Assembly (NCBI GenBank): GCA_041745765.1
Contig: JBGTIH010000062.1
Coordinates: 595 to 64,594 of the forward strand
Reading direction: 5' to 3'
DNA: 64,000 nt
DNA from: Pyrinomonadaceae bacterium
GTDB lineage: Bacteria > Acidobacteriota > Blastocatellia > Pyrinomonadales > Pyrinomonadaceae
Both the position numbers and the translations under genes were made by a program. The notes below the pieces were generated by a model that saw only the letters and a program-made list of their open reading frames with translations, was not told the DNA's origin and did no database searches. Positions 2,955 through 46,251 of this stretch are shown here, in pieces (positions within the stretch are counted from its first letter, which is position 1; each line of letters begins with the position of its first letter).

Positions 2955-4052
2955 TTACTCGTTTGTTAAAACCAAAACTGGATCAATATCGGAGGCGCGC
3001 CACGCCGGATAAAGCGCACCGAAAAGACTGCCGCCAACGGCGATAATAATCGCGGTGATGATCCAATTGCGACTGAATTCAAATTGCAGACCGAATTGAT
3101 TTTGAATCAAAAATGCGGCAAGAAATGAAACTCCGAAACCGAGTAAAACGCCCAAAATTCCGATCAAAAACGCTTCGCCTTCGATCACTTTGATAATAAA
3201 TGTTTTCGATGCGCCGAGCGATTTTAAAATCCCGATTTCCTTGCGCCGTTCAGTGATGGTCGTGTACATCGAAAGCAGTACGAAAATCGTCGAAACAAAC
3301 GCGCCGAGTCCGACCAGAACGCGCAAAAACGTATTCAGACCGGGAATTCTGTCCTGCGCGTCAATTACCAAATCCTGCGTCAGATTGATTTTATTACCGG
3401 GAAGTTCCTGCTCGATTCGCGCCGCAACCTGTTCGGCATTTGCACCGTCTTTGATTTTGACAAGAATAAAAGTGCAGCGGTTCGGGGCTTTCAGCGCGTC
3501 CTGCATCGCGCCGAGCGACATTTTTATACGCGCTCCCGAAGGCGGCGAAAATACTCCCGTGATTTTATAATTTTTGTTCAAAAGCTCGATCTCGTCGCCG
3601 AGTTTATAATTATTTTCCGTCAGATGCCGTTCGTCAACAATGATCTCATCATTGGCGGTCGGCGCGCGTCCTTCGAGAATCTGCATATCGTTCATCGCGG
3701 CAAACGGCTGCCAGTCAACGCCGTCGAGCTGCTGAATTCCCCAGCGTTCATTCGGATTCGCCGTAATGTAGCGAATGACCGGAACGGTTGATTCGACGCC
3801 TTCGATTTCCAGTAATCTTTGCGCGTAAGTCGTGCTGACGGAAGCGTTTGAACTCGTCATCTCCATCGCGCCGGGACGCGTAAAAACAATTTCCGCCTTC
3901 CAATTCGCCGCCCGTTTCGACATATCATTGCTCATCCCTTGTGCCAAACCTGTAAAAAGAATGACCAAAACAACGCCCAGAGCGACACCGATCACGCTGA
4001 TCAATGTGCGAAACGGACGGACTCTTAAATTGGCTAAAACTAATTCGAACAT
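2955..4052 (-). CDS. ABC-transporter permease, FtsX/MacB-type, with no adjacent ATPase
   Basis: 365 aa. An N-terminal TM helix is followed by a large periplasmic domain and a C-terminal 3-TM FtsX-like block (...RRKEIGILKSLGASK...). Confidence 0.8.
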   Translation of the reverse strand: MFELVLANLRVRPFRTLISVIGVALGVVLVILFTGLAQGMSNDMSKRAANWKAEIVFTRPGAMEMTSSNASVSTTYAQRLLEIEGVESTVPVIRYITANPNERWGIQQLDGVDWQPFAAMNDMQILEGRAPTANDEIIVDERHLTENNYKLGDEIELLNKNYKITGVFSPPSGARIKMSLGAMQDALKAPNRCTFILVKIKDGANAEQVAARIEQELPGNKINLTQDLVIDAQDRIPGLNTFLRVLVGLGAFVSTIFVLLSMYTTITERRKEIGILKSLGASKTFIIKVIEGEAFLIGILGVLLGFGVSFLAAFLIQNQFGLQFEFSRNWIITAIIIAVGGSLFGALYPAWRASDIDPVLVLTNE

Positions 4053-26617: not shown

Positions 26618-26630
26618 ATTTAAAAAAATT

Positions 26631-26716
26631 AAGTTTCAAATTTCAAGTTACGAGTTCCAAGTTAAAAAATTACTTGGAACTCGTAACTTGAAACTTGGAA
26701 CTTTGAACTTTGAACT
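26631..26716. repeat. Heptamer-word hairpin (AAGTTNC / ACTTGNA arms)
   Basis: caagttacgagttccaagt-taaaaaatt-acttggaactcgtaacttg, flanked by further 7-nt words. Confidence 0.75.
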
Positions 26717-26722
26717 GTTAAA

Positions 26723-28273
26723 TTATTGAACCGTAAATTGAACCACGCTCATCTGCGTATTCCGGCGCAAGCGGTCATAGCTTACAATATGCAAAACGAC
26801 CGCATCGCCTTTTTTCAGATTATTGACATAATCGTTAAAACTCTTCAGATCCGTAACCGGCTGGCGGTTAATTCTTTGAATCAAATCACCTTCGTTCAAC
26901 GCGTCGCCGCCGGTCGAACTTTTGACATCGGCAATAAAACTCGCCGGATTGATGCTTTTGACGATCAAACCTTTTTCGCCTTCGAGCCTATAAATCTTTG
27001 CGACATCGAGCGTTAGTTCGGTCAAAGTCAGACCGAACGGCTGCTGCGCTTTAATATTTTTATCAATCGGCAGTTTGCGTGGTTCTTCTGTGTCAATCAC
27101 GCGGTTATTTGAAGGACGCTCGGCAAGTGTGATCGAAGTTGTTTTGCGTTCGAGTCTTGTTCCGACTTCGCGCAGATACGTAACATTTACAGTTTGATCG
27201 GGCGCGGTTGAGGCAACTTTTTGAATCAAATCCTGAGCATTTTCCACCTTTTGCCCGTTAAATTCCAGAATCACGTCATTTGCCAGCAAACCGGCATTTG
27301 CCGCCGCGCTCTTTTTTTCCCGCACTTCGGTAATGATCGCGCCTTTGGCTTCCGGCAGATCATAAACTTTGGCGAATTCGTTTTTTACCGAATCGAGCAA
27401 AACGCCGAGATAGCCGCGCCGGACTTTGCCGTTTTGGAGAATCTGCCGATAAACATTTTCCGCTTCATTTGACGGCAGAGCAAAACCGATACCATTGTAA
27501 TCGCCCGTCGAAGTGGCGATCTGCGAATTAACGCCGATGACTTCGCCCTGCATATTAACAAGCGGTCCGCCCGAATTTCCGCGATTGATTGCTGCGTCGG
27601 TTTGAATAAATTTTTGAAACGCATTGCCGGAAGGAGTTTCTCTCTGCGTCTGCGAAATAATGCCGGCTGTTACGGTTTTTGCCAGACCGAACGGCGAACC
27701 GATTGCCAGAACCCAATCGCCGACCTGCGCTCTGTCCGAATTTCCCAATCTGATCGAAGGCAGATCGCGCCCCGTTTCGATTTTCAAAACCGCCAGATCG
27801 GTTTCCTCGTCCGTGCCGATAACTCTCGCCACATATTCTTCGCCCGAAGAAAGCTTGACGGTGATCCGCACCGCTTCTTCGATAACGTGATAATTCGTTA
27901 AAATATAGCCGCTTTTATCAACGATAAATCCGCTTCCGACGGCACTCGCCGGACGGCGCGGAAGTTGTCTTTTAAAGAATTCCAGAATATCGTCCGAATC
28001 GCCCGCCGATTCATCGCCTTTTAATTTTACTTCGGGGATTTTTCCTTTGGTATCAATGCTGACTACTGCCGATTCGACGCGTCTTGAAACCTCGGCAAAT
28101 GATGCGGAAAGTTTTTCAGGAGTAATTGAGGCTTCTGCTCCGACATTTTCGATTTGAGCAAACACCTGTCCGGAATTGCCGCTTAAAGCAGCGACCGCAA
28201 AAATCAAACCGGCAACCCAGAAACGGATTTTTCCGGCGATGATTCCATTTGAATTATTTTTATAATTTAACAT
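26723..28273 (-). CDS. HtrA/DegP-family serine protease with two PDZ domains
   Basis: Catalytic ...TNYHVI..., ...DLAVLK..., ...GNSGGPLV..., 516 aa with a signal/TM N-terminus. Confidence 0.9.
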   Translation of the reverse strand: MLNYKNNSNGIIAGKIRFWVAGLIFAVAALSGNSGQVFAQIENVGAEASITPEKLSASFAEVSRRVESAVVSIDTKGKIPEVKLKGDESAGDSDDILEFFKRQLPRRPASAVGSGFIVDKSGYILTNYHVIEEAVRITVKLSSGEEYVARVIGTDEETDLAVLKIETGRDLPSIRLGNSDRAQVGDWVLAIGSPFGLAKTVTAGIISQTQRETPSGNAFQKFIQTDAAINRGNSGGPLVNMQGEVIGVNSQIATSTGDYNGIGFALPSNEAENVYRQILQNGKVRRGYLGVLLDSVKNEFAKVYDLPEAKGAIITEVREKKSAAANAGLLANDVILEFNGQKVENAQDLIQKVASTAPDQTVNVTYLREVGTRLERKTTSITLAERPSNNRVIDTEEPRKLPIDKNIKAQQPFGLTLTELTLDVAKIYRLEGEKGLIVKSINPASFIADVKSSTGGDALNEGDLIQRINRQPVTDLKSFNDYVNNLKKGDAVVLHIVSYDRLRRNTQMSVVQFTVQ

Positions 28274-36463: not shown

Positions 36464-38053
<1,590 letters not shown>

Positions 38054-38149: not shown

Positions 38150-39004
38150 TTATTTCGTTTGACCGTTTTCGTTTCCGGCACGTTTGGCTCTGTTTTTTTT
38201 AGGAATGATCGGGCAGCGGTCGTGCAAATTAAACTTGAAGCCTTCCGGCAAAATATGTACCTTGACATTGACGAGCGCGAGATTCTCGCCTTTTTCGGCT
38301 TCCGGTGCGTTTGTATAGCTCATCGCGCCGCCGTCAATGATAGTAACCGCGCCTTCGCCGATTACTTCAAATTTATCTTTATTAACCAGCATCGCCGTGT
38401 TTTCGTCAATTCCAAAGCCTAAATCCTGCGGGAAATGAGCAATTGCGGAAATCAATCTGCCGTATCTGCCGCGCTGCGAAAAATGTGTGTCAATAATCGC
38501 TCCGACGATCAAATCCATTCCGGGTCCGATTTCAACTTCCCGCATCCGTGGATTTTCTTCGTTTGCACCGTTAATAATCATCGAATTGGACATCATCGCC
38601 GCGCCCGCGCTCGTGCCGGCGATGACCAGACCTTCGACATATCTTTGTAGAATTATTTTCTGCAAAGGCGAACCGCCGAGCAGACTCGTAATATGAATCT
38701 GATCGCCGCCCGTAAAAAACAGCGCGGTCGCTTTTTTTATCGCTTCGATGCTTTTTTCCAGCCTCGCATCTTCTCTTTCGGAAACATCCACGACCTTGAT
38801 ATTTTTAGCCCCGAGACTCTTAAAAACTTTAGTGTATTCCTTGCCGACTTCTTCTACCTCGTCGGTGGCAACCGTTAAAATAACAATTTTTGAACTTGCG
38901 TTTCCGGCAAGCTCGACAAATTTTTTCAAAATTCGCGGATTATCTTTCCTTTCTTCGCCACCGCCGATTATTACAAGCTTTCCTCTTGCTTCCGTCAACT
39001 CCAT
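38150..39004 (-). CDS. cphE: Cyanophycinase (peptidase S51)
   Basis: LVIIGGGEE..., FFTGGDQ and GTSAGAAMMS (nucleophile elbow), 284 aa. Confidence 0.8.
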   Translation of the reverse strand: MELTEARGKLVIIGGGEERKDNPRILKKFVELAGNASSKIVILTVATDEVEEVGKEYTKVFKSLGAKNIKVVDVSEREDARLEKSIEAIKKATALFFTGGDQIHITSLLGGSPLQKIILQRYVEGLVIAGTSAGAAMMSNSMIINGANEENPRMREVEIGPGMDLIVGAIIDTHFSQRGRYGRLISAIAHFPQDLGFGIDENTAMLVNKDKFEVIGEGAVTIIDGGAMSYTNAPEAEKGENLALVNVKVHILPEGFKFNLHDRCPIIPKKNRAKRAGNENGQTK

Positions 39005-39317
39005 AATTTGTAACTCCCCCTCTAAAACTTAAAGCAAAACACTTTAACGGAAACAATATCTGCCGCACTCCTTCCGATAAAATTCAGTAAAAAAAAATAC
39101 AACCGTTATCAAATGCAAAAATAGGTGACAGCTGGCAGTTGGCGTTTTTCAAACAAAAATTATTAGCCTCTTTCCGCTCTTTCATTTAGTCGTAATCAAT
39201 TACGATATAATTGATCTTTAAATTGGATAAAGTCGAGCTAAGTGAGTTTATGGTCAAAGAGAAAGACAGTTCTGTTTTTAAGAAAACTGTCTTTCTTGAG
39301 TAAAATCGTCTTTTTCA

Positions 39318-40235
39318 CTAACCCAGACCTTGTTTTTTTACTTCTGTATTAAAAGTATCCGCCGCATTTCCGGTAACTTGTTGTACCTTTTCAACGACAT
39401 CCTTTTTTACTGAATTTACTGTTTCTCCCGCGACATTTTTAACATCTTGAATTGTTTCTTTAGCGGCGTGCTGCGCTTTTGAAATCAGATTTTGACGTGT
39501 TTCTCCGAGCATTTCATTTTCGTAACCGGTCGAAGGAATCGCCAGACCGACGAGTGCGCCCGCTGCCAGCGCAACTGCTCCGACTGCCAGAGGGTTTTCC
39601 TCGATGTAATAATCATAACTGTCGCGCACCTGTATGCCGAGATTTTCAACCTTTTCCGCGGTGTTTCCGGCAAAGTCGCCGACGGTTTCATAAACGGTAT
39701 TTGCCGCTCCTTCCGCACTTTGATAAAGCGAACTTCCCACGCTTTCGATTTTTTCCTGCGCATTTTTTAATGTTGACGAATCATTTGACAAATTACCGGA
39801 ATTTGTCGCACCGGATAAATTTCGCCGCTCGTTTCCATTATGATTTGATTTTCGTCCATTCTTGCTCTTGAAAATCAAAAGCCCCGCGCCAAACGCGATT
39901 AAGAATAACGGCAGCGGATTTGCGACCGCCTTTTCTAAAATTCCGGATCGTTGTATTTCCTTATTTACATTTTGCATAAATTTTCCCGCCTTGCCTATTG
40001 TGGCACTATAAACATTGTCCTTCGCCGCTTCGAAAAGTTCCGAAGCCTTTTCCGAAATCTGCTCGGAAACCTGTTCGGAGATATTTTCCAAACTTAATTT
40101 TTCCTCGATTGCTTGAATCGTTTCGCCCATTTCCTGACGGGTTTCTTCGATTCGTTCGCGGATTTGATCGGTTTCATCGCCGCCTTCTTTCCCTATTTCT
40201 TCGACGTCTTTCGTTAAATCTGTTCTTTCACCCAT
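39318..40235 (-). CDS. DUF3618-like membrane-associated protein
   Basis: N-terminal ...IRERIEETRQEMGETIQAIEEKLS... helix, a central TM segment (PLPLFLIAFGAGLLIF), and helical repeats. Confidence 0.55.
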   Translation of the reverse strand: MGERTDLTKDVEEIGKEGGDETDQIRERIEETRQEMGETIQAIEEKLSLENISEQVSEQISEKASELFEAAKDNVYSATIGKAGKFMQNVNKEIQRSGILEKAVANPLPLFLIAFGAGLLIFKSKNGRKSNHNGNERRNLSGATNSGNLSNDSSTLKNAQEKIESVGSSLYQSAEGAANTVYETVGDFAGNTAEKVENLGIQVRDSYDYYIEENPLAVGAVALAAGALVGLAIPSTGYENEMLGETRQNLISKAQHAAKETIQDVKNVAGETVNSVKKDVVEKVQQVTGNAADTFNTEVKKQGLG

Positions 40236-40612
40236 TTGACATCCTCCTTCAATGATTCGACCGATTCCTTCGGCTTTAAATCCATACTTTTTAAATTATT
40301 CAGCCCTTTGGAGATTAAAACCGCCGCCGCAATTCCAATTATCAGAGCGACAATCAACGCCGCCAGCCAGAACTGCATAAAATTAGCCAGTCCGGCAATT
40401 ATCGCCGCGATAAGTGCAAGAAACGCCGCATTGGCGACCGTCCCGCCGATCACTAAAAAACCGACATTTTTGCCGATTTTCTCTACCTTCTGCGTTAGCT
40501 CGACCTGCACCAGCGCGACTTCCTGCTTAAGCAAGGTTGTGGTTTCACCAGCAAGTTCGGAAAATAATTCGCCGATTGAACGATCATCTTTCACAATTTG
40601 TTGTTGTGCCAT
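40214..40612 (-). CDS. Holin-X / phage-holin-family (DUF1469-like) membrane protein
   Basis: 132 aa. N-terminal amphipathic ...SIGELFSELAGETTTLLKQEVALVQVEL... followed by two TM helices. Confidence 0.6.
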   Translation of the reverse strand: MAQQQIVKDDRSIGELFSELAGETTTLLKQEVALVQVELTQKVEKIGKNVGFLVIGGTVANAAFLALIAAIIAGLANFMQFWLAALIVALIIGIAAAVLISKGLNNLKSMDLKPKESVESLKEDVKWVKEQI

Positions 40613-40627
40613 TTAAGAAAACCTCCC

Positions 40628-41131
40628 TTATTTTCCCGTTGAGCGGCTTTTCGAAGTTTGATTTGGCGAGGAAGACTTTAAAAATCTTGCCGCCATAACT
40701 CCGACCAGAAAAGCTCCGCCGACAAATAGTGCGGGCTGCCGCCGCGCAAAACTTTTCGCGTCGCGGGTTATATCTTTGAGCGTCGCCTGCTCGATATAGC
40801 CTGAAAGACCTTCGATTTTATCGGCTAAACTCTCGCCGTATTGAGCTGTCGTCAGCGCGATCTTGTTTTTATCATCCGAATCACGCAGATTTTCACCGAC
40901 TTGTCGGATGCTGTTGGCAACATTACTTAATCCTGTTGTCAGAGTTGCTTTCTGTTCATCTAAGAGACCCGATGCTTTTTCTTTTACTTGCCCGACCGCG
41001 TTGTTGGCGGTTTCTTTAATAGATTGGTCGCTTTTTTGATTATTAACCGTTGATTGCTGACGGTTTATTGTTTCGTTGTTTTGTGAATTGTCTGCTTGTC
41101 GGGCAGTTCCGGTATTTTGTTTGGTTTCCAT
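40628..41131 (-). CDS. C-terminally membrane-anchored, Q/N/T-rich hypothetical protein
   Basis: The ATG at 41131 is preceded by a strong SD (AAGGGAGAAATT). C-terminal TM segment PALFVGGAFLVGVMAARFL. Confidence 0.55.
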   Translation of the reverse strand: METKQNTGTARQADNSQNNETINRQQSTVNNQKSDQSIKETANNAVGQVKEKASGLLDEQKATLTTGLSNVANSIRQVGENLRDSDDKNKIALTTAQYGESLADKIEGLSGYIEQATLKDITRDAKSFARRQPALFVGGAFLVGVMAARFLKSSSPNQTSKSRSTGK

Positions 41132-41703
41132 AATTTCTCCCTTTGTTCGTAATTTGTTCAAGATTTCCATTACAATACATTCGAGCTTTTCATACTGTGT
41201 GCTGTCATACATAAGAAAGTTTTTTTTGATAAAACTTAACCTTTCTTTAAATTCCTTTGCAGCATAAATCCAACTAAAATAAACAGTCAGAGCTTATGTT
41301 TAATAAAATAACAAGTCCTGAATCTTTATTTTAAGATTTCTCGTTTTGTTTACTATTTTACAGATTAATCGGAAAAGTTTCCGGCAGCTGATCTATTTGA
41401 CAAGGAAATTAAAGTCATAAATACAAAAAAATTTATTTACTTACGATAAGTTCAGCGCAGTTTGAATAAAGAAATGTACTCAAATGATTTAAGAATTTCG
41501 TTTTAACAATTTCGGAATGACTAATTTCAAAATCTTAAAAAGGCTTTTATCGAATATGATTTCCCAAAAACGTATCGGAACAATACGGCTTGAATGTGTG
41601 TTCCAGCTACAAAATTATTTAACATCCTTATTTTTCAGTAGTAGCGGGATTTTATTTTTTTCGGCACGTCTATTGCGGTAATAGTTTACAAGAGGAAAAA
41701 AGA

Positions 41704-41913
41704 ATGGCACAAGAAACATCAAATGAAGAAAGAGCTGCGGAAAAATCTTTTAATGAATCACCGAAAACTATAAATAAAGCGACTACGGTAATGGTAATCG
41801 GGGGAATTATATTGTTGATTATTGCTACGGTAATGCTCTTGTCTTTTTGTCGAAATGACACAAACACAGGAAATTCCACTACTCCAGCCGCAACTAACAG
41901 GGCTTCACCGTAA
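41704..41913 (+). CDS. Possible small single-TM protein
   Basis: 69-aa ORF with SD-like AGAGGAAAAAAGA before the ATG and one hydrophobic helix. It lies in an AT-rich, gene-poor stretch. Confidence 0.35.
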   Translation: MAQETSNEERAAEKSFNESPKTINKATTVMVIGGIILLIIATVMLLSFCRNDTNTGNSTTPAATNRASP

Positions 41914-42146
41914 GTTTTTGTAAGAAAAAATACTGATTGTCTGTTTAAGCAAAGAGAGTCTTCATGATTTATGCAAATCTGAATAAATCGGAATTATTAC
42001 AAATCAGTAGATTAAATTAAGTCTGACGGCAAATTATTGCCGTGTCGCGCTCGAAGAATGCTTAGGGGTTTTATTATATTAGATTTTGGCTAATCTCAAA
42101 CTCGAACGATTAATATTCATTCCTACTCTTTAATCAATTTAGATGA

Positions 42147-42261
42147 TTAGGTCTTTGGCTTTCGGTCTTTAATTTTTGCTCTGATATTTAGAGTTTCGTT
42201 TCAAAAATCAGTTGCTTTTTATTAAAATGACTTTTGCAAAGACCAAAAGCTAAAGTTCTAA
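42147..42261. repeat. Long-loop heptamer-word inverted repeat
   Basis: ttaggtctttggctttcggtctttaa ...63 nt... gcaaagaccaaaagctaaagttctaa. Confidence 0.55.
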
Positions 42262-42332
42262 TCAGCTATAAATCAATTTTCGTAATCCAGATCAGGCGAA
42301 AGCTTTTTGACGATTTGATTTAAGAAAAACTC

Positions 42333-42379
42333 AATGCTATTGTTTCATAGATGAAACAATAGCATTAAACAATAGCATT
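42333..42379 (+). promoter_or_regulatory. Perfect 34-bp palindrome plus a third direct half-site, 20 nt upstream of the Rad52-like gene (operator or RNA switch candidate)
   Basis: AATGCTATTGTTTCAT-AG-ATGAAACAATAGCATT followed immediately by AAACAATAGCATT. Confidence 0.55.
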
Positions 42380-42399
42380 AAAAAAGGCAGGAAACTAAC

Positions 42400-42831
42400 A
42401 TGACACCGTCAGCAAACACAGAAGAATTTGAAGAAACCGAAAATTTTGTAGAAGGAAAATACGAACTTCGTTCGATCAGACAGATTACGGCGGATCTGTC
42501 GAAACCCGTTGCTAAAAGACATCTTCGCCTTCGCAAACAAGGCGGCAAGGAAATAAAATATCTCGCGTGGCACGATGCGATTAAATATTTAGACCATTAT
42601 GCGAGCGGTTGGAATTATGAAATCCGTTCGATTGATTCGGTCGGCGGAAAATTGATCTTGACCGTGCGGCTTTCGATTCCGTGCGCCGAAGGCATCGTCT
42701 ACCGCGAAGCGACCGGACAGGAAGACGAAGACAAGGAAACTTACGGCGATTCTTCGAGCAATGCCGAATCAATGGCTCTGCGCCGCGCCGCGAGCAAGTT
42801 CGGTTTGGGTTTGTATCTCTACGATCAATAA
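42400..42831 (+). CDS. Rad52/Rad22-family single-strand annealing protein (DdrA/Sak-like)
   Basis: 143 aa. ...KYLAWHDAIKYLDHYASGWNYEI..., ...REATGQED... and C-terminal ...AESMALRRAASKFGLGLYLYD match the bacterial Rad52-like core pattern. Confidence 0.7.
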   Translation: MTPSANTEEFEETENFVEGKYELRSIRQITADLSKPVAKRHLRLRKQGGKEIKYLAWHDAIKYLDHYASGWNYEIRSIDSVGGKLILTVRLSIPCAEGIVYREATGQEDEDKETYGDSSSNAESMALRRAASKFGLGLYLYDQ

Positions 42832-44676: not shown

Positions 44677-45762
44677 ATGAGAAAGAAAATCGGAATCGGA
44701 ATAATCGGAACGGGATTTGCGCGAAAGGTGCAGATTCCGGCGTTTCAAAATCTTGCAAATGCCGAAATCATTTCAATCGCCAGCCGACAATTAAAAAACG
44801 CTGAAGATGCGGCAAGCGATTTTGACATCGCGCATTTTACGGATGATTGGCGGGAAACCGTTGAACGTGAAGATGTTGAACTGGTTTGCATTACCACACC
44901 GCCCGACACTCATTTTGAAATGGCACTTGCCTCAATCGAACTCGGCAAGCACGTTTTGTGCGAAAAACCGATGGCGTTTGATGTGGCACAAGCGCAAAAA
45001 ATGACCGAAGCGGCGCACAAAAAAAATGTTCTGGCATTAATTGATCACGAACTACGCTTTTTAAACGGCAGACAAAAAGCCTTTAATTTATTGCGCGAAG
45101 ATAAAATCGGCAAAATCTTTCACTGCAAATATTTTTTTAACAACGCAACCCGCGGAAACGCTGATTTGCCCTGGAGTTGGTGGTCAAGCGTGGAAAGCGG
45201 AGGCGGCACTCTGGGCGCAATCGGTTCACATGCGATTGACACTTTGCGATGGTTTCTCGGCGCGGAAATCGCCGAAGTTTTCTGCCATCTGCACACCAAT
45301 ATTAAGCAAAGACCGGATGCGGAAACCGGCGAAAAGCGCGAAGTTACGAGCGACGACGAAGCATTAATGATTTTGAAATTTGCCGAAAGCGATCTGCTCG
45401 AAGAAGCAACGGCAAATGTTTCGCTCTCAATGGTCGAAGCCGGAAATTATCGTAACTGCGTGGAATTTTTCGGGACAAAAGGCGCAATCCGCATTGAAGA
45501 CAACGGCGAAATTTTCTTTACCGATATCAGCGAAAACATCTGGCAAGAAATTAAGGTCGAATTAGGCGAAGTTGTGCCGAAAACACCGCAAAACGGCTGG
45601 TCGCGCGGTTTTGCGGCGTTCTCTCACAAAATCATCAATGCCATTTCGGCAGGAAAAACCGAAATTAAATATGCCGCCACTTTCAAAGATGGTCTGGAAG
45701 TTCAAAAAGTTTTAGATGCCGCGCGGAAATCCGATGAAACAGGCTGTTTGATAAAAATCTAA
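44677..45762 (+). CDS. Gfo/Idh/MocA-family oxidoreductase
   Basis: N-terminal Rossmann IGIGIIGTGFA and EKP motif (VLCEKPMA), 361 aa. Confidence 0.85.
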   Translation: MRKKIGIGIIGTGFARKVQIPAFQNLANAEIISIASRQLKNAEDAASDFDIAHFTDDWRETVEREDVELVCITTPPDTHFEMALASIELGKHVLCEKPMAFDVAQAQKMTEAAHKKNVLALIDHELRFLNGRQKAFNLLREDKIGKIFHCKYFFNNATRGNADLPWSWWSSVESGGGTLGAIGSHAIDTLRWFLGAEIAEVFCHLHTNIKQRPDAETGEKREVTSDDEALMILKFAESDLLEEATANVSLSMVEAGNYRNCVEFFGTKGAIRIEDNGEIFFTDISENIWQEIKVELGEVVPKTPQNGWSRGFAAFSHKIINAISAGKTEIKYAATFKDGLEVQKVLDAARKSDETGCLIKI

Positions 45763-45811
45763 AAATCATTTCAGATTCCAAATTCCAAATCTGAAATCTG
45801 AAATGATTTTT
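45761..45811. terminator. Heptamer-word hairpin acting as a bidirectional terminator
   Basis: aaaaatcatttcagatt-ccaaattccaa-atctgaaatctgaaatgattttt, between convergent genes. Confidence 0.7.
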
Positions 45812-45825
45812 AGATTTAAATTATT

Positions 45826-46251
45826 TTAAGAAGTTATACCGGAAGAAGGCAAAGTCAGAAAAAGCTTGCCGTTTTTGATGCCTTTCAAGCTCAAAAGCCG
45901 GTTGGAAAGTTCGACGATTTCGGACACAATGCCGCGCAGGGCAATGATTTCCATACAATCATCGTGGCTGACGTGAAGGTGCATTACGGACAAAATATTA
46001 TCGTGAAAATCGTGCTGAATCGCGCCCATTTCCTGCGCCAAATTTCGGGCGTGATGGTCATAGACGAGCGTCAAACTGCCGAGTGCATTTATTTCGGTTT
46101 GCGTTTCAATTTTTTGCTGAATTAATGCTTCACGAATCAGATCGCGCAACGCTTCGGAACGCGTCGCATAGCCGCGATCGTTAATTAAACGGTCGTAATT
46201 TTCCAGTAAATCCTGATCTATGCTGACACCAAATCTGACTAATTCACTCAT
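45826..46251 (-). CDS. nikR: Nickel-responsive regulator NikR
   Basis: N-terminal ribbon-helix-helix (LVRFGVSIDQDLLENYDRLI...GYATRSEALRDLIR) and a C-terminal ACT-like domain with His/Cys metal ligands (HDHHA..., HLHVSHDDCME). Confidence 0.85.
   Translation of the reverse strand: MSELVRFGVSIDQDLLENYDRLINDRGYATRSEALRDLIREALIQQKIETQTEINALGSLTLVYDHHARNLAQEMGAIQHDFHDNILSVMHLHVSHDDCMEIIALRGIVSEIVELSNRLLSLKGIKNGKLFLTLPSSGITS

Follow-up and report, generated by a model that had tools for sequence, protein, structure and literature searches.

How is a stand-alone gene for a Rad52-like annealing protein controlled on a bacterial chromosome, and is the long perfect palindrome in front of it part of that control? 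These questions are raised by a locus in a 64,000-nt stretch of DNA (the window) from a Pyrinomonadaceae bacterium (assembly GCA_041745765.1, contig JBGTIH010000062.1, positions 595-64,594 of the forward strand). A preliminary description of this locus reported a Rad52-like open reading frame, preceded by a 34-bp palindrome in which 16 of 16 positions are complementary, with a third copy of the half-site directly behind it. The palindrome and the third copy were confirmed both by reading of the sequence and by repeat searches. Two explanations had been offered for them, an operator for a dimeric repressor with an auxiliary half-site and an RNA switch, and a damage-inducible circuit distinct from the RDRM/DdrO system of Deinococcus had been suggested. 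The answer that we favour, with moderate confidence, is that the gene for this chromosomal annealing protein would be controlled by a new motif of a damage-type regulon.

Conserved promoter and putative operator

Relatives of the Rad52-like gene were collected by a scan of one genome per species, which gave 113 of them. Eighty of the 113 were kept and about 85 orthologous loci were compared overall, the exact motif being counted over 80 loci and the one-mismatch and synteny counts being made over 78. The comparison of orthologues reduces the conserved element to 18 bp, TGTTTCA-N4-TGAAACA. The exact sequence GTTTCA-N4-TGAAAC is found in 40 of the 80 loci, once per locus and always 30-45 nt before the Rad52-like start codon, and a search that tolerates one mismatch finds it in 44 of 78; the window itself contains no further exact copy of the operator core. 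A sequence logo made from 45 orthologous sites, which were anchored on the operator and selected with at most one mismatch, reads in order atTTGATTT, a 17-nt spacer, TG-n-TAtTGT and the dyad GTTTCA-YNKR-TGAAAC-A.

The first part of this arrangement has the form of a sigma-70-type promoter whose -10 element is extended, and it matches the consensus at 8 of 12 positions. Of the 45 promoters, 43 have the TG of the extended -10 element, and 43-45 have the T, the A and the last T of the hexamer. The dyad is not separate from this promoter: the first two bases of the operator are the last two of the -10 hexamer, and the right half TGAAAC(A) is conserved in 42-45 of the 45 promoters, on par with the -10 element. 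A dyad that spans the region from -10 to +10 is at the classic position of a repressor operator, and the element is predicted to act as one. Further downstream, a purine-rich, GGAG-like block is found in the relatives at the same distance from the ATG as the Shine-Dalgarno-like sequence of the window. The positions of these features are collected in Table 1.

Table 1 Features of the Rad52-like locus in the window, and sites at SplB-like genes in related loci
Feature	Position	Strand	Basis or remark
-35 hexamer TTGATT	42315..42320	+	inside conserved atTTGATTT block; six positions 91-96% conserved (45 promoters)
Perfect 34-bp palindrome, 16+2+16	42333..42366		strain-specific extension of operator arms from 7 to 16 bp
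Arm 1, AATGCTATTGTTTCAT	42333-42348		read from sequence
Arm 2, ATGAAACAATAGCATT	42351-42366		read from sequence; AG between the arms at 42349-42350
Extended -10 element TGcTATTGT	42335..42343	+	TG at 42335-42336, hexamer TATTGT at 42338-42343
Operator core TGTTTCA-TAGA-TGAAACA	42341..42358		putative dimeric-repressor site, conserved
Predicted transcription start	42349..42351	+	from promoter geometry, 6-8 nt after -10, at palindrome centre
Two exact tandem copies of AAACAATAGCATT	42354..42379	+	second copy, 42367-42379, is the 'third half-site'
Shine-Dalgarno-like GGCAGGA	42386..42392	+	7 nt before ATG, read from sequence
143-amino-acid Rad52/Rad22-family single-strand annealing protein	42400..42831	+	Pfam PF04098, fold search, homologues
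SplB-like sites	L015:6281-6300; L020:5408-5427; L324-L327:1488-1507; L328-L330:988-1007		

The same motif at a second gene

In two of the relatives (L015 and L020) a near-copy of this module is located downstream of the Rad52-like gene, at the start of the gene for a 335-amino-acid radical-SAM protein. Homologues of this protein are named 'DNA repair photolyase' or 'PA0069 family radical SAM protein' by some sources, and it is called SplB-like (PA0069/COG1533) here. Together with seven orthologues from other contigs, 2-5 Mb chromosomes included, a set of nine such genes was obtained. The arrangement of cTTGnnn, a 17-nt spacer, TATYGT and T[TG]CA-N4-TG[CA]GAC is seen at all nine promoters, the full pattern being present in eight of the nine as counted, with single-position departures in L325 (left half GTTGCG) and L329 (-10 element CATCGT). 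The SplB-like sites are near-palindromic, for example GTTGCA/TGCGAC with five of six positions symmetric.

In all nine genes the ATG is found 7 nt after the -10 element, inside the right half-site, and a Shine-Dalgarno sequence is absent, which indicates that the SplB-like genes are leaderless. The hexamer at this distance is TATYGT in eight of the nine (all but L329), and its position at leaderless starts gives independent support to the -10 role of the corresponding hexamer in the Rad52-like promoter. By analogy, the position of the SplB-like ATG is equivalent to that of the predicted transcription start of the Rad52-like gene, which supports the prediction.

A relaxed scan for GTYKCA-N4-TGMRAC over 787 kb of Pyrinomonadaceae DNA found the Rad52-like and SplB-like promoters only, at about 0.75 hits expected by chance. 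The pattern by which LexA/SOS control can be recognised, a dyad over the promoters of several repair genes, was thus found at 44 of 78 Rad52-like and nine of nine SplB-like loci. Scans of other DNA were made with TGTTTCA-N4-TGAAACA (viral sequences) and with BTTGTTTCAYNNRTGAAACAAV (metagenomes), the latter designed to skip the Rad52-like promoters. Each gave at least 120 matches; among the matches listed are unrelated hairpins and, in the metagenome scan, many human-gut contigs. A stricter viral scan, with TATYGTTKCATCTRTGMRAC, gave one match, inside a long open reading frame of a viral contig, which corresponds to chance level.

Proposed regulatory circuit

In the circuit that we propose, a sigma-70-type promoter (TTGATT, 17 nt, TGnTATTGT) would transcribe the Rad52-like gene, and a dimeric sequence-specific repressor would bind the 18-bp palindrome over the -10 element and the start, thereby blocking RNA polymerase. 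The repressor site GTYKCA-N4-TGMRAC would be shared by at least two repair-type genes, and inactivation of the repressor by DNA damage or a related stress would lead to expression of both. The Rad52-like protein, judging from its family, would then bind and anneal single-stranded DNA in a DdrA-like manner. The nature of the signal is suggested by the second gene: SplB/COG1533 is SOS-regulated in several phyla and belongs to the core SOS genes in Bacteroidetes (PMC8565304; see also PMC3765255). Since SplB genes are recurrent in SOS regulons, the inducing signal is most likely DNA damage, acting via a cleavable repressor of the LexA or DdrO type. A LexA-type repressor with a new motif is a quite possible regulator, short of a probable one; an XRE/DdrO-like repressor seems unlikely, and some other type of regulator would account for what is left.

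The conserved core, kept at 44 of 78 loci, and its recurrence at the SplB-like genes lend support to the earlier suggestion of a damage circuit that is distinct from the Deinococcus RDRM/DdrO system. More tentatively, it is possible that the Pyrinomonadaceae, and perhaps the Blastocatellia, possess an undescribed DNA-damage regulon in which GTYKCA-N4-TGMRAC serves as a new LexA site or as a non-LexA site and a domesticated phage-type Rad52 protein is a core member. In that case a second phylum, likewise adapted to dry soil, would have arrived by convergence, and independently, at a counterpart of the Deinococcus DdrA/RDR system.

Several points weigh against the proposed circuit. The target gene families are two so far, and the words 'regulon' and 'DNA damage' depend on how SplB-like proteins are annotated in other phyla, the PA0069 family itself being biochemically uncharacterised. 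The right half-site of the SplB-like genes overlaps codons 1-3, and its conservation may partly reflect coding constraint. The Rad52-like promoter, with its match of 8 out of 12, is not listed by a simple consensus scan and was deduced from conservation. The operator is absent in 34 of 78 orthologues, many of which are positioned directly behind the methylmalonyl-CoA mutase gene or a SnoaL-like gene; in the lineages without operator the regulation is lost or replaced. Finally, tblastn searches with LexA, RecA and SSB of E. coli and LexA of B. subtilis gave no match in the window and the 80 loci, and lexA, recA and ssb are absent from the 787 kb covered.

With respect to a regulator encoded nearby, no DNA-binding protein was found among the recurrent neighbours of the Rad52-like gene, which judged by their translations are a DUF2254-like membrane protein, a PIN-type toxin pair, and SnoaL-like and acetyl-CoA transferase-like proteins, nor by Pfam checks of a PilT-like ATPase and of the window's own neighbours, and no XRE/COG2856 (DdrO/IrrE-type) pair was present among the neighbours examined. 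The two loci in which the SplB-like module was first noted, L015 and L020, both lack a clean operator at the Rad52-like gene. About 110 nt upstream of that gene they have a degenerate dyad, GTTTCA-N4-TGCATC or TGTATC (L015:4840-4855, L020:4823-4838), which may be a decayed or diverged site.

The long palindrome is a derived allele

The extension of the arms in the window and the third copy behind them are well beyond chance. The inverted-repeat search returned arms of 16 nt that are 100% complementary and 2 nt apart, whereas 64 kb of random sequence would be expected to contain about 1e-5 perfect 16+16 inverted repeats with a fixed short spacing. Tandem Repeats Finder describes 42354-42382 as 2.2 copies with a period of 13 and 100% matches, and the exact 13-mer AAACAATAGCATT occurs at three places in the window and nowhere else in it. 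The third copy, which is separated by 20 nt from the ATG, allows an alternative pairing of arm 1 with 42364-42379 (94% complementary). The window allele is known from a single contig, and its protein cluster has one member.

The five closest relatives (L001, L002, L321, L322 and L323, with 90-97% protein identity) have 7-bp arms and neither the long-arm extension nor the duplication; all five read ...AATGCTATYGTTTCATCTGTGAAACAYATCTCATTAAAAA... (also given as ...TATYGTTTCATCTGTGAAACAYATCTCATTA...). Because both changes are absent in these relatives, the 34-bp palindrome and the third half-site fall outside the conserved mechanism. The idea of a dimeric-repressor operator, as put forward in the preliminary description, is thereby narrowed: it holds for the core dyad, which lies over the -10 element and the predicted start and is found again at the SplB-like gene, and has to be given up for the 34-bp length and the auxiliary third half-site.

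The origin of the long arms can be traced by comparing the alleles. Read on the opposite strand, positions 42349-42366 of the window (AGATGAAACAATAGCATT) match the ancestral left flank AATGCTATTGTTTCATCT exactly, down to the old centre bases CT. We infer that the right flank was probably rewritten as an inverted copy of the left flank by a template switch (quasi-palindrome correction), because the clustered changes all raise the complementarity at once; the 13-bp tandem duplication appears to have come after it. Quasi-palindrome correction by template switching is a mutational mechanism known from the genetics of E. coli and phages. The window resembles such cases in that changes clustered within about 18 nt turn a 7-bp dyad into a perfect 16-bp dyad, and in that the new arm repeats the old left flank and centre exactly, in inverted form. 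It differs in that the event is deduced from allele comparison only, and the 13-bp duplication is a separate event of the slippage type. The allele would be a clean natural case of a short operator dyad being converted by a template switch into a palindrome that is both long and perfect.

The core operator of the window has remained intact, with a TAGA centre that is also found in L016, L019 and L032. The duplication lengthens the predicted 5' untranslated region from about 36 to 49 nt, nearly all relatives having 32-42 nt (one outlier is due to a mis-picked start). The two events have further placed a pair of copies of the extended -10 sequence TGCTATTGT on the minus strand, within 42351-42379, where they may function as divergent promoters without requiring a -35 element.

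Alternative explanations

The stability of the palindrome invites an explanation at the level of RNA, in which a hairpin in the 5' untranslated region or a switch, with arm 1 pairing alternately with arm 2 and arm 3, controls translation or termination. When folded as RNA the palindrome region indeed gives a hairpin of very high stability (-23.5 kcal/mol, z = -3.8, with 0 of 200 shuffled sequences as stable), and arm 3 is able to replace arm 2 as the partner of arm 1. However, the conserved promoter puts the predicted start at the palindrome centre, so that arm 1 would be outside the transcript, and the long arms and arm 3 are confined to one allele. In an alignment of 48 sites (46 distinct sequences) the six core pairs never vary, and the flanking positions pair in 50% of the cells with a covariation of 0.061, below the mean of 0.089 for shuffled controls (500 of 500 shuffles were at least as high). 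Furthermore, Rfam at gathering thresholds has no match anywhere in the window, and the plus strand is without a U-tract after the hairpin. The RNA switch, as one of the two original explanations, is thus to be regarded as very improbable, and the element is predicted to be a protein-binding operator. It is if anything still harder to believe that minus-strand transcription ends at the palindrome as an intrinsic terminator, or that the palindrome is an artefact of assembly. A simple scan does flag the minus strand, with 19 pairs followed by TTTTCTTAAA, and the occurrence of the allele on one contig only could raise suspicion of an artefact, but no minus-strand gene ends at this place, the adjacent gene on the right being on the plus strand, and only 4 of the pairs are G-C. 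The element is located mid-way in a 67-kb contig, away from the contig ends, and its 18-bp core is kept at promoter distance in dozens of genomes.

Two other explanations accept the conservation and concern its meaning. It could be that there is no repressor and that the shared TATYGTTKCATCT represents a promoter, a discriminator and an initially transcribed region suited to a particular sigma factor or to leaderless-type initiation, the dyad symmetry being incidental or a by-product of hairpin-driven mutation. The identity between the Rad52-like and SplB-like promoters is indeed mainly in the left half (the -10 element and TTCATCT), the right half of the SplB-like sites is coding sequence, and palindromes are clearly prone to template-switch change here. 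Against this, the right half of the Rad52-like sites is in non-coding DNA downstream of the predicted start and is as well conserved as the -10 element; the sites were chosen with at most one mismatch, yet half of the loci (40 of 80) match exactly; and the SplB-like sites are near-palindromic themselves. The operator centre (42348-42351 in the window) is informative as well. It is non-palindromic and occurs in both orientations among L001-L080 (TCTG/CAGA, TCTA/TAGA and TCGG/CCGA). Along the protein tree its orientation has been reversed several times, which looks like repeated inversion of the centre between the 7-bp arms. Recurrent inversion with intact arms suggests a symmetric reader: both orientations would be tolerable to a symmetric dimer that reads double-stranded DNA, and hairpin-mediated inversion of the centre would fit too. 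An arrangement without any repressor therefore appears quite improbable to us. It is somewhat easier to imagine, though still unlikely, that the operator is real and that its regulator answers a signal other than damage, such as desiccation, stationary phase, redox state or nutrient supply, so that the pairing of the two genes belongs to a general stress programme. None of the LexA motifs given in PMC8565304 corresponds to this motif, and the gene in the window adjoins DUF3618 and Holin-X-like genes. Dry soils are the typical habitat of Pyrinomonadaceae, and Antarctic Dry Valley metagenomes are rich in Rad52_Rad22 homologues (PMC10140301). On the other hand, annotation assigns DNA-repair functions to both of the known targets, SOS regulons repeatedly include SplB/COG1533 (PMC8565304), and no metabolic gene in the 787 kb bears the motif. 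Control by a damage-responsive repressor is for these reasons the explanation that we retain.

A leaderless mini-gene or leader peptide, starting at the ATG or GTG of the right half-site, was also considered and rejected: the reading frames have 3-45 codons and share only the operator-encoded M/V-K-Q/H/R.

The Rad52-like protein

The open reading frame belongs to the Rad52/Rad22 family. Its match to the Pfam model Rad52_Rad22 (PF04098) has an E-value of 3.5e-10 and a score of 40.4 bits, against a cut-off of 20.3, and covers residues 26-143 and profile positions 2-137 of 153; the family call in the preliminary description is borne out by this profile search. Matches in PHROG are to the Erf-like and Sak-like families of annealing proteins, and NCBIfam has no model that matches the protein. 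In the Rad52 N-terminal fold a beta-sheet packs against a long C-terminal helix, and the basic residues that bind DNA are on this helix. The AlphaFold2 model, of moderate confidence (pLDDT 67), has strands at residues 42-55 and 72-109 and a helix at 119-133, i.e., a beta-sheet followed by a long C-terminal helix. In a Foldseek comparison with the PDB the top ten were all human RAD52, with probabilities of 0.99-1.0 and TM-scores of only 0.33-0.39. A sequence search against PDB chains and an hhalign comparison with human RAD52 were not significant, so the family call is carried by Pfam and the fold search, and the protein is a divergent member of the family.

An acidic and variable N-terminus (residues 1-22) precedes the core domain. 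In 25 orthologues 77 columns do not vary, those of the C-terminal ESMALRRAASKFGLGLYLYDQ among them, and the motif ESMALRRAASKFGLGLYLY, taken as a mark of the Rad52 N-terminal fold, is invariant or nearly so. A large protein collection contains 1473 homologues, of which the named ones are all from Acidobacteriota/Pyrinomonadaceae and some sit on 4-5 Mb chromosomes; for most of those listed a PF04098 hit had been precomputed. When 1.8 billion representative proteins were searched with a profile, about 1000 clusters were obtained, many with longer proteins.

Genomic setting and origin

All 80 kept relatives are from Pyrinomonadaceae, Pyrinomonadales, Blastocatellaceae or otherwise unclassified Acidobacteriota metagenome-assembled genomes, and several are on chromosomes of 4-5 Mb. 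Of 78 loci, 57 have a methylmalonyl-CoA mutase gene in front of the Rad52-like gene, in the same orientation, and a PilT-like ATPase (Pfam-checked) is often found downstream. In the window the mutase gene is at 36464-38053, and its distance to the Rad52-like gene includes about 4 kb of genes that are extra relative to the closest genomes. These inserted genes (38150-41212, minus strand) encode a cyanophycinase, a label given on reading of the translation without a Pfam test, and a trio of a DUF3618 protein, a Holin-X-like protein (PF07332) and a 193-amino-acid protein; the trio resembles a stress-protein cluster. The 490-bp intergenic region upstream of the promoter (41913-42400) has no counterpart in the relatives beyond the -35 element. 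In a sizeable clade (L014, L017, L023, L036, L040, L046 and L048) the ATG of the Rad52-like gene follows about 20-40 nt after the mutase gene, directly behind its stop codon, and here the gene has no promoter or operator and is apparently co-transcribed with the metabolic gene.

The neighbours in the window encode DUF4149, GRDB-like, DUF3618 and Holin-X-like proteins, the cyanophycinase and the mutase. The neighbours examined include no exonuclease, integrase or phage gene, which agrees with what had been noted earlier, and the chromosomal position is conserved. The conserved synteny and the restriction of the kept relatives to Acidobacteriota indicate that the gene has been inherited vertically on the chromosome and does not belong to a prophage. 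One viral contig from IMG/VR (L331, IMGVR_UViG_3300049432_000203) encodes a homologue with 55% identity at 3016-3390. This is the only relative on a viral contig; it is located in a replication-like module, adjoining proteins with HTH_36/RepL-like and T5orf172/MUG113 domains, and the palindrome is absent. The position beside a replication-initiator-like helix-turn-helix protein fits a phage origin of the family, and the chromosomal gene probably descends from a phage annealing protein. For the open reading frame beside the phage homologue a resemblance to NinB, noted by eye, was dropped, as Pfam gave no support.

Other inverted repeats

Some further repeats were noticed. Between two minus-strand genes of the window, at 26630-26725, an imperfect inverted repeat with 32-nt arms (94% complementary) and a third related arm is built from GTTTCAA/GTTCCAA-like units. 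A hairpin at 45755-45817, with 30-nt arms that are 93% complementary and a 3-nt loop, is positioned between the convergent genes 44677-45762 (plus strand) and 45826-46251 (NikR-like, minus strand) and is probably a bidirectional terminator. A low-GC element, AAAAACAGCAT-TTTGTTTCA-N4-TGAAACAAA-TCAAATGCTTGTTTTT, was found in L203, L206 and L210-L212 and at about 35 other metagenome loci among the matches listed. Many copies are from human-gut contigs and the loop occurs in both orientations; the element is unrelated to the Rad52-like operator.

Comparison with known systems

A repressor-operator system of the damage-regulon type is of a known kind, and what would be new here is the motif and the unusual Rad52-like member. 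We know of no Rad52-like annealing protein that has been described as an SOS gene. Full-text literature searches on the motif, on LexA motifs in Acidobacteriota and on DNA repair in Pyrinomonadaceae gave nothing relevant. Rad52_Rad22 homologues of Acidobacteria were noted in Antarctic Dry Valley metagenomes without regulatory analysis, in a study that used a length filter of 150 amino acids, by which the 143-amino-acid protein would be excluded (PMC10140301).

The Sak-like and Erf-like annealing proteins of phages are in the same fold family as the Pyrinomonadaceae protein, as is evident from PF04098, the PHROG matches and the viral homologue with 55% identity. Unlike the genes of phage recombination modules, the Rad52-like gene has its own promoter and putative operator, conserved chromosomal synteny, and no adjoining phage genes, exonuclease or integrase.

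LexA motifs change greatly between phyla, and lineage-specific boxes include TGTTC-N4-GAACA in Verrucomicrobia, GAAC-N4-GTTC in Gram-positive bacteria and CTAA-N5-TTAG in Bacteroidetes. The operator half-site TGTTTC resembles what we take to be the Verrucomicrobia half-site, TGTTC, but the spacing of the operator, TGTTTC-N6-GAAACA, is different. As in LexA/SOS regulons, a short dyad covers the promoters of repair genes and SplB/COG1533 is a recurrent member; the operator motif itself is not among the LexA motifs listed for such regulons (PMC8565304). A lexA gene or an autoregulatory site was not seen in the window and the 80 loci.

The closest parallel is found in Deinococcus, where a palindromic operator covers promoter and start, other repair genes are grouped under the same control and leaderless transcripts occur. 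The Pyrinomonadaceae system shares the palindromic element over promoter and start, the second repair gene and the leaderless transcripts with this RDR regulon. Like DdrA, the Rad52-like protein is a chromosomal, stand-alone Rad52/Rad22-family protein without a partner exonuclease, in organisms from dry or irradiated habitats. There are also clear differences. DdrA has about 208 amino acids with a C-terminal extension, whereas the present protein of 143 amino acids consists of the core and a short acidic N-terminus and ends 9-10 residues after the core helix. It comes from a different phylum, its family has its own phage relative, and the operator GTTTCA-N4-TGAAAC presumably differs from the RDRM dyad. 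Without the C-terminal extension and the RDRM, the Rad52-like protein is not a strict member of the DdrA family, which itself has been assigned to the Rad52/Rad22 family (PMC10140301); by analogy, it probably works in a similar way.

If the proposed circuit is correct, it would offer a first handle on the control of DNA repair in the abundant but rarely cultured Acidobacteria of dry soils. The 18-bp operator, the two targets and the promoter layout could then be used for genome-wide prediction of the regulon and for fishing of the regulator. It would also bear on RecA-independent repair of double-strand breaks after desiccation. After DdrA of Deinococcus, it would be the second case in which a bacterium has made a Rad52-type annealing protein part of a damage-inducible chromosomal programme.

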